Shown here in pieces: positions 4,082 through 54,530 of a DNA stretch of 64,000 bases (its first letter is position 1; every line of letters starts with the position of its first letter). The notes beneath the pieces were generated by a model. It saw only the letters and a list, made by a program, of their open reading frames with translations, did not search any database and was not told where the DNA came from. A program made the translations under genes and the position numbers. Origin of the DNA: Octopus vulgaris. Its lineage: Eukaryota. The stretch spans positions 37,138,001-37,202,000 of the forward strand of contig OX597839.1 in NCBI GenBank assembly GCA_951406725.2, given 5' to 3'.

Positions 4082-4320
4082 ATAAATGCAAGACAACGTG
4101 GGAAAATAATAGTACTCAAAAATCGGAGGTAGAGTAATATACTTTTTTTTTTTTATTAAAGCTGAAAAAAACATGACAAAAAGAAACTGTTACTCAGAGT
4201 TTCACATTTCCATTCGTCAGACAGTTGTGATCAAGTCTTGATCACAAGTATCCAACAAACAGCAATGTGAAACTCTGAGTAACAGTTTTTTTTGTCATGT
4301 TTTTGCAGCTTTACTAAAAA
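4082..4320. mobile_element. Penelope-like pseudo-LTR-derived fold-back element (family P4)
   Basis: Inverted arms (CTGTTACTCAGAGTTTCACATT / AATGTGAAACTCTGAGTAACAG) around palindromic TTGTGATCAAGTCTTGATCACAA; relatives at 46153-46300 and 18198-18240; Penelope origin inferred from hammerhead plus inverted layout. Confidence 0.65.
4187..4224 (-). ncRNA. Minimal type I hammerhead ribozyme motif
   Basis: Minus strand CTGT-CTGACGA-ATG-GAAA-TGT-GAAA-CTC-T-GAG-TA-ACAG: stem I CTGT/ACAG, intact core, wobble stem II, palindromic stem III, GUA site. Confidence 0.75.
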
Positions 4321-4529
4321 GTGTGTGTGTGTGTATACATACACACACACACACACACACACACACACACACACACACACACATATATATATATATATAT
4401 ATATATATATATATATATATATATACAAAAGTGTGTGTGTGTATATATATATGTATGTGTGTGTATATATACATATGTGCATGTAATATATATTTGTGTA
4501 TGTAAATATGCATATATCATCATGACCAT

Positions 4530-4820
4530 CATTATCATTTAATGTCTGTTTTCCATGCTGGTATGGGTCGGACAGTTTGACAGGAGCTGCCTAGACAGAA
4601 AACTGCACCAGGCTTCAGTGTCTGTTTTGGCATGGTTTTTACAGCCAGACGCCCTTCCAAACACCAACCACTTTACTGTGTGGGCTGGATGCTTTTTATG
4701 TGGCACCAGCACTGGCAGGGTCACCAAGTAACTTGCAAGACAAAGATCCTTTGAATGAGGAGGGAGCATTGGGGGAGTCAACCTTGTGTCAGGTGATGAA
4801 AGGTTAGAGTGTGACAGAAA
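4530..4820 (-). mobile_element. RTE-tail short retroposon (family E), diverged
   Basis: (CAT)n-TTTAATGTCTGTTTTCCATGCTGG...GACGCCCTTCC...CCAACCAC as at 22601 and 58610. Confidence 0.7.
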
Positions 4821-4822
4821 TA

Positions 4823-5060
4823 GCGAGCTGGCAGAAACGTTAGCACACTGGACGAAATATTTATCGGCATTTCGTCTGTCTTTACACTCTGAGTTCAAAT
4901 TCCACCGAGGTTGACTTTGCCTTTCAACCTTTCGAGGTCGATTAAATAAGTACCAGTTACACACTGGGGTCGATATAATCAACTTAATCCCTTTGTCGGT
5001 CCTTGTTTGTCCCCTCTATGTTTAGCCCCTGGTGGGTAATAAAGAAATAAGAAATAAGAA
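4823..5060 (+). mobile_element. SINE family B, full length, nested in family E copy
   Basis: GCGAGCTGGCAGAAACGTTAGC head, B-box GAGTTCAAATTCC, (AAGAAAT)n tail. Confidence 0.85.
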
Positions 5061-5368
5061 ACAGGTACCTTGCTGTAGAGGAGATATATAGTTATTCGCT
5101 CAGAAAGAGAGAATGAGCGATAATGAGGACAGAAACAGGTGTGTTGCTGGAGAGAAAATACATGGTTACCCAGGTATCTTCAGTCAGAGGGAGAGAGCAA
5201 GAGAAAGAGAGACAGGGTGGAAGAGAGTGAGAGTGCAAGAGAAAGCAGGAGAGAGATGGTGACAAGGTACCAAGACATACTCACAAGTAACGGAGATCAG
5301 AATACAAAAAATGGTAGGGTATGGCCAAAGGTGCATGAGTAAGGAGTAGGGACTTCACATGAACTTAA

Positions 5369-5588
5369 CCCTTTAGTATTTAAACCGGCCATGTCCGGCC
5401 AAAATAGTTAATCTGTTTTATGTTCAAACTGACCAGATCCAGGCCCTCACACCTACCCTACAATGTTATTCTACATTAAGTAATTACACCATCAAGATCT
5501 TTGAAGATATGAGATAATGCATGATTAATTCAAATCAATGGGAATCAATAAGCATTATGCTTGATAGAATAATCTGAACACTAAAGGG
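5369..5588 (+). mobile_element. piggyBac-type MITE (family M2)
   Basis: CCCTTTAGT...ACTAAAGGG termini with TTAA at both ends; homologous to 50622-50842. Confidence 0.85.
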
Positions 5589-51070: not shown

Positions 51071-51220
51071 TTTAAATTATTTATTTGTTGCTCCCTGGAA
51101 TTAATTATTAAGTATGACAACATTAATTTAATTAATTACTTTTAATTGCAGGTTCACTGAACTTGGAATGTCTTTGTCGATGACCACTGCAGTTTATCTG
51201 ATTGTCTCCTACAAATGCCG

Positions 51221-51339
51221 GACGTCAGCCAATCGGAAACCTCGATACCGAGTCTTTCAATCGGTCGAAAATGGTGCAGCAACAACAGCAGCAGCAGCAG
51301 AGAGAAACACTGCCACGTGAGCCGTTTGTGTCACATGAC
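51221..51339. promoter_or_regulatory. Candidate cis-regulatory motif cluster
   Basis: GACGTCA (CRE-like), AGCCAATCGG (CCAAT/NF-Y), CACGTG and GTCACATGAC E-boxes in a CpG-retaining non-repeat patch. Confidence 0.3.
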
Positions 51340-53920
51340 AAGAGCATCTTGGACAGCCCTTGTTTTACTTATACATGCACACACACACACACACATGTAT
51401 ATGCATAGATGTACCACGTGCACACAAATACACGTATATTCACACACATGTAAACATCAACTCATATACTTTACAAGTACACACACACACAAGCATACAT
51501 ACAGAGATGTGATTTTGATGGGTGGGGGCAGGTTATTCACACATAATGGGTATAGTCACGTCTGTATGGTTAAGAAGTTTGCTCCATGACCACATGATTT
51601 TCAGGTTCAATCCAACCACACGCTACCCTGGGCAAATTCGTCTTCTACAATGTCATAACTGTGTTCCAAACCAATGTGCCCTTGTCCACTACATTACTGG
51701 ACATTGATGTCAAGTACCTTTTTTTTTTCTTTTGTAGCCCAGTCATTTGCATCTTGCAGTATTTACCACATTTGATGGCATAAAAGAGACACATGGCTAT
51801 ATTAGATGCACCCCATTTTCAGCAGTGCATATTCAGGAAAAAGTTTTAGTCCATTAAAGCATATGATATTTAAATCAATTTAGAATCTGGGATCCAGGGT
51901 GATTTTTTTGCAGACTTTTTTTTTTTTTAGTGAAAAAAAACAAAAAGGTGCCTCTTATATTCCATCAAATATGGTAACTGTTCCTGGGTAACAACTGCTA
52001 TATCAGTGGTGTTGAATTCATTTGGTTTTTGTAAGCTGGAGTGAAACAAAAAAAAGATCTTGCAAGATAGATATGGACAATAATTATACCTAAAATCCCT
52101 ATTCATAATGCTGGCCAAAGTAAATGAACAAAGCAGTCAATATGAATTGTAACAACTTCATAAACAATAAAGAGAGGAAAGAATATGAGGTGTTGACAAA
52201 GTTTGTGTGCAAAGATAGGTGGACAATACTTAACCACATGGTGTATATATATATAGGAATAAAAATTTATATATAAAGAGACGAACACAGAAAACAGACA
52301 GGACATTCAAAGCCTTTAATCTTCAGTCAGAAACCGGATCATCATAGCAAATTTCGGCTGATTAATTCTGATATTTGCTCCAACACAGCCAGCCCCAAGG
52401 AAAAACTAAGCTGTGACCATTAGATTTCTTGGAAAAAGGAACGAATATAAATACAAAAAACGAAAACAAAATTAAAAACAAGAATGGTTAACAGCAGGTA
52501 TATCATAGGCATACATTCCATGGAAGCAAGGGAAGCAATGCTTCCCTTAAAAGTTATAGAAACAAAATTGAAGCTATATTTATTACTTATTTTTCATAAA
52601 ATTGTTCTTCCAATGTCCTGAAAAATTTATGTAAACTTCATGACATCATAGGCTTCAGACTTTTATTGTCGGACTTAGCAGGAGACAACAAGCAGTGGCA
52701 GACAACACAAAAAAAAAAATCTGTGCAAGGGAAGCAACACGAGCTGTTGCATCCTTTTGGGGTGTAATGTTTTAACATTTTTTCCGATAAAAAAGCCACA
52801 AAGACAATTTTTTTCTAGTAAGAGCTGATGACAAATAGTTTTAGATGCTAATAAATACTTATACACTTAGATTAAGTTTCTGTGAATTTGCAATACCTAT
52901 GATATATATAATCTTACAATGTTATGCAACACTTACATAGGAAAAGGGAAGCAAGTTGATATTCTGCTTCCATAAGAAAAATGGTGAAAAGATAATAAGC
53001 ATGTAGTTTTCTGTGTTTATTCAACTAATATTTTATACTTTTCCAAATTACAGAATACCCTTAGTATAAAATGTGATTTTTTTATTTATTTTAAAAGTTG
53101 CTCTATAATATGAACATGTCAATTTGATTCAAATATCTAAGTGAAAAAAAATTTTGGTCATTGCTTCCCCACCCTGAAAGATAACCATACGCTCCTGATA
53201 TATATATATATATATAAAATATATATAATCCTGTTAAGTAAGAGTCCTTTGAGTGAGAACTGAGACAGATTAATGTGCCTAGATTAATGTGAGAAGACCA
53301 ATTCTGAAGAGAAAGCTTTCCCTGTTTCATCTAGAATACATTTCACTATCAATTCTGTCACTAGAATCCATATGGATAATCACTAGAATCCATCTGCATA
53401 ATTTTGCAAAATAAAAACAAAAAACATTTGTTTGGCTCAGCATGTATAGACAAAGTGAAGGGGAAGTAGCTCATATCTTTTAGCATATAGATTCATAAAA
53501 TGTCATTGATTGACATAACAAAAGATTATGGATACTAAACTCTCAGCTTGAAAAGCAATTTTCTAATTAATTGAAATAATTAAAGGTAAGTGAGGAGTGC
53601 CTCATTTGCAATTAAGTTACTTATCATACACACTCCCTAACATATGACTAATTACATCCTGCATGTGAATTCAGTGCAGTGCACACATTGCTTTGGTAGC
53701 TTTTTAGGTGCATTTAGTTATCATTTATTTTGTATTATATTTCTTGACATGCAAGGTCAGTGAGTCTGGTCACTTAAGATTTATATCTATGAATATATAT
53801 ATAGGTTCAGATGTATGGTAAGAAGGTTACTTCTTACCATACACCCACAAGTAAAAGATAAAAAAAACATATAATATAATATAATATATATATATATATA
53901 TATATATATATATATATATA

Positions 53921-54314
53921 CTAGCAGTATCGCCCGGTGTTGCTCGGGTTTGTAAGGGAAATAACTATACAGCATTTTTAGAGAGTTATAGCCAAAAAAT
54001 AGCAAAAAAATGTATTAAAAATGGAAAAAATATGATGGTAAATTTTTTTTTAAATCGTTGACTCATCATAGACATTTTTAGAGAGTTACTTCCCTTTAAA
54101 AAAATATGCATGAAAATGGAAAAAAATGATGGTAAATTATTTTTAAAATCGTAGACTCATCGTAGACGCGTGCTAATACCCAGAAGGGCTCGATATGAAT
54201 CACGACTATAAGATACCCGGTTTTGGTTAAACTGCACCGCAAAATGTGGGAGTAGTTAGGAATCTAAATCGAAGGGGACAGACACTCACACAACTACAGT
54301 TTTATATATAAAGA
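53921..54314 (-). mobile_element. Non-autonomous Helitron-type element
   Basis: Minus strand begins A|TC, ends GC-rich hairpin CCCGAGCAACACCGGG then CTAG|T; no TSD; inserted in (TA)n. Confidence 0.8.
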
Positions 54315-54349
54315 TATATATATATATATATATATATATATATATAATT

Positions 54350-54530
54350 CAAATTTATAGAAAAACAAAGACCTAGAGAGGTGTAGGAACAACAAGCAAG
54401 TGTATTAGTTTGATGCTTGGGAAAAAGGGAAAAGCCTTTTACATTTTGAGCCTAAGCTCTTTGGCAGAAAGGAATAAGTGGAAATAAACAGAGAGAATGA
54501 TAAAAAAAAAACATGTTGAGTTCAGTGGTC
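54350..54530 (-). mobile_element. Family P2 element, degenerate
   Basis: Homology to 5911-6068; motif at 54436-54471 mutated. Confidence 0.6.

Follow-up and report, generated by a model that had tools for sequence, protein, structure and literature searches.

In metazoan genomes, a 2014 survey found thousands of heterogeneous, mostly solo minimal hammerhead ribozymes (min-HHRs), with several families per genome and opposite-strand pairs 100–700 bp apart (PMC4209133). Insertions of Penelope-like elements (PLEs) are drawn with a truncated inverted copy and a tail at one end (PMC8557442, section 6 and Fig. 2 legend), and microsatellite bias and one-sided tails in PLEs are reported by the same authors. 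The endonuclease of PAc, a Poseidon element of Anolis, favors AT-rich sites (PMC11167929). In the Octopus vulgaris genome, PLEs account for 6.83% of the sequence in 190 families (PMC13282606, supplement). Here and below, statements about published systems refer to the parts of each source that were covered. We analyzed 64 kb of O. vulgaris DNA (GenBank assembly GCA_951406725.2, contig OX597839.1, positions 37,138,001 to 37,202,000 of the forward strand), hereafter the window, which carries 13 named copies of short non-coding elements with hammerhead motifs, grouped into families P1 to P5. Evidence on whole families was drawn from the window itself and from public sequencing contigs matched to the region of one copy, P2d.

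These elements are probably dead 3′-terminal stubs of PLE pseudo-long-terminal repeats (pLTRs). Several endonuclease-bearing (EN+) PLE families would have entered AT-rich microsatellites by target-primed reverse transcription that aborted, and their hammerhead would be weak, dimer- or protein-dependent and by now mostly dead. The likely sources are three to five EN+ PLE families, each with a minimal type I hammerhead. This reading draws on the motifs, the fixed 3′ ends, the geometry of P3 and P4, the TA/CA flanks and the abundance of P2; nicking, priming, cleavage and a link to a master open reading frame (ORF) are the steps it would add to them. The PLE origin proposed in the initial annotation of this DNA is supported by inverted insertions with a single tail and by a reverse transcriptase (RT) fossil in the window.

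Element families and their hammerhead motifs

The window is TA/CA-rich animal DNA, intergenic or intronic, of which ~18% is masked as simple repeat. All 13 element sites named initially were located where they had been placed, and the five families were reproduced by self-BLAST, P5 having no second copy in the window. Two P2 copies, P2b and P2c, lie within one local duplication (26786–27682 against 28354–29278, 92–98% identity, ~1.6 kb period), and because they were duplicated together with their flanks the 13 copies represent 12 insertions. The families had been described as different in sequence apart from the P1/P2 pair. This does not hold for P3 and P4, which have a helix III palindrome and a tail-end motif in common, so that the five families probably reduce to about three lineages: P1/P2, P3/P4 and P5. 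Together with the RT fossil, the named elements make up 4.4% of the window, near the genome-wide PLE share (PMC13282606). The hammerhead elements and related fragments are as follows, including three features absent from the initial list.

4080–4320, no single strand: P4a, an inverted pair; the minus arm has a full canonical hammerhead (C3 4220, H17 4191) and a ~60-nt tail (4082–4140), the plus arm is truncated and tail-less.
5911–6068, minus strand: P2a, a 3′-end remnant with core CUGUAGA (A6U; C3 6032, H17 6005) and TA tracts on both sides.
7509–7661, plus strand: P5, a single copy between (TA)n tracts, ends set by eye, with a canonical core (C3 7528, H17 7562), a 5-bp stem II and a palindromic helix III.
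11581–11781, plus strand: P1a, a decayed hammerhead (U4C, G5A, broken stem II) with (TA)n on both sides; both ends match those of P1b.
18018–18161, no single strand: P3a; the minus arm has a canonical core (C3 18111, H17 18061) and no tail, the plus arm is a tail stub of ~24 nt; (TA)n on both sides.
18201–18238, minus strand: a tail-less P4 stub, not in the initial list.
26562–26740, no single strand: P3b, a fold-back with both arms cut inside the hammerhead, lacking the CUGANGA half; the right arm alone is tailed, and (TA)n lies to either side.
27176–27350, minus strand: P2b, core with A6U and G12A.
28772–28946, minus strand: P2c, the local duplicate of P2b, with the same A6U and G12A core.
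33570–33771, no single strand: P3c; the tail-less plus arm has a hammerhead (C3 33679, A14C, H17 33729), the inverted minus arm bears a 68-nt tail.
35739–35965, minus strand: P1b, U4C core (C3 35868, H17 35842) with an extra A between 9 and 10.1 and a 4-nt palindromic helix III.
36554–36785, minus strand: P2d, the longest P2 copy, with its hammerhead at 36643–36678 (C3 36674, U6 36671, N7 36670, H17 36647).
43232–43362, no single strand: a candidate sixth family, a fold-back with hammerhead-like halves on both arms, not in the initial list.
45731–45768, plus strand: a P2 fragment from the part downstream of the hammerhead, not in the initial list.
46150–46300, no single strand: P4b, an inverted pair with a left-arm tail, lacking the CUGANGA half; the right end merges into another repeat.
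54347–54530, minus strand: P2e, an old copy with a decayed core and (TA)n at the 3′ end.

The window was scanned with a type I hammerhead descriptor that tolerated one extra base and a helix III of palindromic sequence, with 20 local dinucleotide shuffles as the null. Three matches had a perfect core, with C3 at +7528 (P5), −18111 (P3) and −4220 (P4), and none occurred in any of the 20 shuffles. When one core mismatch was permitted, eight matches were obtained versus 0–2 per shuffle, six on named elements and two off-element (6369 and 58022). A hammerhead in each family, as initially proposed, is therefore upheld at the family level and fails at the copy level, where a full canonical core is present in 3 of 13 copies. 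The core lesions are A14C in P3c, U4C in P1b, U4C with G5A in P1a, A6U in P2a and P2d, and G12A in P2b, P2c and P2e; P3b and P4b have lost the CUGANGA half. Type I cores with stems I and II are found in P3, P4 and P5, and P1 and P2 are off at one core base each. Most hammerhead cores are now decayed in the genomic copies. The calculated self-duplex of helix III is −6.4 (P5), −7.9 (P4a), −9.7 (P3c) and −1.7 kcal/mol (P1b); it is unfavorable in P2a (+2.6 kcal/mol), but the majority letter of P2, at 77–93% of the depth, makes the helix palindromic again. A scan with Rfam gave no hammerhead among the best 150 of 423 matches, which comprised microsatellite-driven microRNA models and one viral untranslated region, all below the gathering score.

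Several other sequences in the window resemble parts of these elements. The fold-back at 43232–43362 has a helix III of the P3/P4 type and a first core half TGATAA, possibly the known U3-A8 variant, the 5′ strand of stem I being lost at the fold center. Adjoining P3a, a near-perfect AT-rich fold-back (17906–17997, 97%) has no hammerhead core and is perhaps the end of another PLE family. A short element at 33860–33932 ends at (TA)n and contains GAAAC followed by a palindrome, resembling the 3′ half of a decayed hammerhead. Two TA-flanked elements (25634–25810 and 52250–52500) carry a minus-strand CTGAAGA with no complete hammerhead after it, and a sequence of ~115 bp at 6162–6275 is flanked by two (TA)n tracts.

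Inverted arms, fixed 3′ ends and TA tracts

The fold-backs reported initially are borne out for P3 and P4. All five P3/P4 insertions consist of two 5′-truncated arms in opposite, divergent orientation, with a tail on exactly one end. One arm stops at an inner end, and the other extends a further 60–68 nt, which constitutes the tail; in P3a, the tailed arm is reduced to its last ~24 nt. In P3 (33686–33771 and 18018–18104), an ATG lies where stem II begins and opens a frame that stops after 20 codons, the same stop being present in both ATG-bearing copies and in a third copy. The tailed P3 arm at 33570–33672 is open for 34 codons across the tail.

PLE biochemistry (PMC11167929) suggests how such insertions could form. 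A master element elsewhere would supply an RT-GIY-YIG protein, by which AT-rich DNA, in this case (TA)n, would be nicked on both strands. Reverse transcription would be primed at two nearby internal RNA sites; the stretch between them would become the tail, so that one end of the insertion is tailed and the other is not. Synthesis would mostly abort after 50–250 nt, and the resulting stubs would stand either alone or back to back. Cleavage by the hammerhead would be weak, taking place as a dimer via the palindromic helix III and with protein help, and a ribozyme without need for speed would accommodate the relaxed cores of P1 (U4C) and P2 (A6U).

Alignment of the P2 copies in the window revealed coinciding 3′ ends and differing 5′ ends. 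We matched four public runs to 36240–36900 at 80% likeness, three of them presumed DNA (labeled as organisms A, B and E) and one presumed RNA (X15). In run X1, the unique flank is matched without differences by a 365-nt contig with a depth of 28.7, and the summed depth over 36562–36699 is 1.8–4.1 million, or 6×10^4 to 1.4×10^5 times the unique flank, a ratio inflated by overlapping contigs that is not a copy number. Each DNA run yielded 17,133–23,395 matched contigs, some of them on a second repeat at 36815–36900. We infer P2 copies of the order of 10^4–10^5 per genome; the very large population envisaged initially is borne out by this contig depth. The P2 depth rises sharply at the 3′ end, being 0.13–0.19 million upstream of about 36700–36720, and in public contigs the family extends 5′ past 36785, with one common loose end in all four runs. 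X15 also contains many P2 contigs, which are not counted as P2 expression because this run is only presumed RNA. A fixed 3′ end with 5′ truncation is thus seen for P2, by depth profile and alignment, and for the P3/P4 arms; P1 is represented by two copies with the same ends. The second repeat at 36815–36900, next to P2d, is itself high-copy, with a summed depth of up to 0.9 million in the DNA runs.

The shared 5′ and 3′ ends of both P1 copies and the ~15- to 30-fold drop in P2 depth upstream of about 36700 would also fit P1 and P2 as non-autonomous, SINE-like (short interspersed element-like) derivatives of a PLE pLTR, short units of ~140–205 bp mobilized by PLE protein in trans, P3 and P4 being ordinary truncation products. 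Putative non-autonomous PLE derivatives have been reported (Chlamys in PMC8557442; bioRxiv 10.64898/2026.07.22.740005). We nonetheless regard this as unlikely. There are only two P1 copies, no place is listed where many P2 molecules end, and the P2 family runs past 36785 in all four runs. In the window, the 5′ ends of P2 differ and the upstream sequences diverge, so the drop in depth is accounted for by divergence among subfamilies together with truncation.

The ends of the elements bear on a further alternative, in which they are monomers of non-LTR retrozymes spread through hammerhead-made circular RNA. In eight copies measured, the element ends 42–109 nt 3′ of the cleavage site in the hammerhead sense, instead of at the cleavage site, and pairing in inverted orientation with a single tail is characteristic of PLEs. 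A retrozyme origin would suit the presence of type I hammerheads in these short non-coding repeats and the many P2 contigs in X15, a run only presumed RNA, and dispersed monomers of retrozyme families are described (bioRxiv 10.64898/2026.07.22.740005). However, the motifs belong with the minimal hammerheads of PLEs and not with the canonical ones of retrozymes (PMC4209133, PMC7229834), and no hammerhead unit is tandemly repeated in the 64 kb. The initial label "retrozyme-like" has to be dropped on this ground, since tandem repetition belongs to the definition of non-LTR retrozymes (PMC7229834, bioRxiv 10.64898/2026.07.22.740005), and we give the retrozyme explanation hardly any credence.

For abortive PLE insertion, the flanks are the next line of evidence. 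Adjacency to dinucleotide repeats, noted from the outset, exceeds random placement: half of the 24 element ends (12) are no more than 5 nt away from (TA)n with n of at least 5, versus a null mean of 0.38 and a maximum of 4 in 5000 placements, a test that is partly circular because the ends were set by eye. Among BLAST-defined ends (P5 and the duplicate P2c excluded), 8 of 22 are near such tracts; in the window's other dispersed repeats the count is 5 of 92. For the TA link, the evidence least open to circularity is provided by the P2 family, whose 3′ loose ends read (TA)n in 4/4 runs (96, 127, 63 and 30 contigs, agreement 0.57–0.64), unlike the reference copy P2d, which has a CA-type flank.

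The TA tracts could instead be secondary, having grown at or between old insertions or marking the only places where insertions survive, rather than being the target. The simple-repeat content of the window would favor this, as would the TA/CA/TG tracts adjoining other repeats at 24 of 92 ends, and neither empty sites nor target duplications are readable in the window. We consider it improbable, given the excess of (TA)n-adjacent ends over other repeats and the loose-end consensus that holds in four runs. A TA preference is also reported in other PLE clades (PMC8557442), and PAc prefers AT-rich sites (PMC11167929).

The altered cores of P1 and P2

In the register used for P1 and P2, C3 adjoins stem I, an extra A follows A9, and G10.1 pairs with C11.1. 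Both families then bear min-HHR hallmarks, namely one nucleotide between 9 and 10.1, G10.1-C11.1 and a palindromic 15.2–16.2. Pairing in stems I and II amounts to 93.8% across six P1/P2 copies versus 17–54% in slid registers, with one G-C/C-G swap. We rejected an alternative register with the core shifted by three bases and a 2-bp stem II, because in it stem I no longer adjoins position 3 and GAAA is preceded by a 2-nt bulge. When metagenome and viral contigs were scanned with the P1/P2 motifs, no matches were obtained.

The P1 core reads CCGAUGA (U4C), with C4 in both copies, and the P2 core CUGUNGA (A6U). A6 is present in none of the five P2 copies in the window, four of which have U and one C. 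Across the runs, the differences listed for the 36-nt P2 motif fall at N7 (two other letters, 4–43%), at H17 (27–70%) and at one palindrome-restoring change (77–93%). Position 6 is not among the best 40 of 84 difference rows, the lowest of which peaks at 25%, and on this basis we infer that U6 is the majority letter of the family. A6 may be a minority of 5–25%, and X1 has one A>T place outside these rows. That common variation appears confined to N7 and H17, two sites only, hints at selection. A search of predicted proteins for further P1 copies in which to read core position 4 found none.

The catalog of Lunse et al. is reportedly the main one for small PLE hammerhead variants. The A6U core was not found in the literature searched, which did not cover that paper (RNA Biol 14:1499), where U6 or C4 may be listed. 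U4C and A6C are natural hammerhead core variants with low but detectable activity (PMC3088659, PMC7151607), and U4C is known in viroids. P2 and P1 alter the same core positions; the natural A6C and U4C variants are rare single loci, whereas P2 is a mass repeat family.

The U6 core of P2, a predicted ribozyme, is the one unusual feature among these elements. It leads to a bolder proposal, which we hold only tentatively and think doubtful: P2 might be a PLE-dependent non-autonomous repeat of ~10^4–10^5 copies homing to (TA)n, with uridine fixed at the normally invariant A6 and free variation only at N7 and H17, both neutral positions. It would hold a natural A6U ribozyme that selection kept through mass expansion and that would cut only when dimeric, when aided by PLE protein or given an unusual metal preference, and P1 would be a sister of relaxed U4C core. 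If the P2 core cuts, the hammerhead consensus would be widened, and standard descriptors would be missing a family of tens of thousands of copies. It would also offer a natural test of what PLE hammerheads are for, an open question because PAc cleavage is not needed for insertion in vitro.

The reverse transcriptase fossil and known systems

The Penelope-like RT fossil noted initially is present.

37705–38220, plus strand: PLE RT fossil, broken by stops and frameshifts and unattached to any hammerhead element.

A phmmer search with the fossil gave ten matches at E ≤ 1e-3 (best 5.7e-11), the named ones crustacean. Seven of the ten carry RVT_1, and one, P0005, also has a C-terminal GIY-YIG domain; another, P0002, is a repetitive protein without a Pfam match and probably spurious. 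A Pfam search of three fossil frames returned no family, a word-index protein search with the fossil no match, and no loci of P0005 relatives were confirmed in metagenomes. The fossil shows PLE activity in this genome region. It is not a demonstrated partner of the hammerhead elements, because no other ORF piece is found in the window at E<0.1, nor any beside a hammerhead.

Other repeats are present as well. A hairpin at 29947–30011 (80%) has a minus-strand CTGATGA and no valid hammerhead. Immediately before it lies what resembles the C-terminus of a LINE (long interspersed element) RT. Three 123-bp tandem copies (14675–15048) lie within a frame that likewise resembles the end of a LINE RT, and by eye ~47150–47650 and ~60390–60600 resemble Tc1/mariner transposase remnants.

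A number of results weigh against abortive PLE insertion as the source of these elements. No hammerhead element is joined to a PLE ORF, and tblastn with five relatives finds only the unattached fossil in the window (E<0.1). The common ends of the two P1 copies suit a defined unit better than random truncation, and P1, P2 and P5 lack inverted or tail geometry in the window. The P3/P4 tails measure 60–68 nt, versus the 30–40 nt usually reported (PMC8557442). P4 and P5 have neither G10.1-C11.1 nor the extra nucleotide between 9 and 10.1, and P3 has G10.1-C11.1 but carries its extra base before G12, not after A9. Covariation in six P1/P2 copies falls short of significance, its score being reached in 37 of 500 shuffles, and the folding energies of eight motifs are no better than those of shuffles (z −1.45 to +1.62). 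Structure alone gives weak support for the hammerheads.

The novelty of a large, unannotated population was overstated initially, since solo min-HHRs (PMC4209133), the microsatellite bias (PMC8557442) and a PLE annotation of O. vulgaris (PMC13282606) are in print. Hammerheads are not mentioned in the supplement and main-text parts of PMC13282606 that were covered. In the open literature, the combination of octopus or cephalopod, Penelope and hammerhead led only to PMC8557442 and to a squid genome paper with 235 Rfam hammerheads. An octopus min-HHR survey seems not yet to be in the open literature, though it is an expected extension.

Non-LTR retrozymes (PMC7229834, bioRxiv 10.64898/2026.07.22.740005) have in common with these elements short non-coding hammerhead repeats related to PLEs; they differ in their tandem units, of which none were seen in the window, and in the canonical motifs and circular RNA of PMC7229834. 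PAc (PMC11167929) offers nicking of both strands at AT-rich sites, a pair of internal RT start sites that give the tail, and a protein-assisted hammerhead dispensable for insertion in vitro. Its ORF begins at stem II, which is also the place of the ATG in P3, with a frame of 20 codons.

EN+ PLE insertions (PMC8557442) share with the elements in the window 5′ truncation, an adjacent inverted copy, a tail at one end, microsatellite bias and no clear target duplications. The (TA)n preference is stated for Naiads and the microsatellite bias for Neptune. In the part of that paper covered, Naiad PLEs have no canonical hammerhead in the pLTR, whereas P3, P4 and P5 have canonical motifs. The fossil resembles elements with an RT plus a C-terminal GIY-YIG, by likeness rather than by tree.

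The closest match is with the min-HHRs in metazoan PLE pLTRs (Cervera & De la Pena 2014, PMC4209133), which are likewise type I with a short stem I and a palindromic helix III, fall into several divergent families per genome, and occur mostly solo or as close opposite-strand pairs. Their extra base after A9 and G10.1-C11.1 recur in P1 and P2; P4 and P5 lack G10.1-C11.1. In the parts covered, U3-A8 is among their variants, unlike the A6U of P2 and the U4C of P1. Stem II is 7–8 bp in Schistosoma and 3–5 bp here. Most likely, the octopus elements add a taxon to a known picture, in which an animal genome is filled, at its TA tracts, with end-fragments of PLEs that carry minimal hammerheads.

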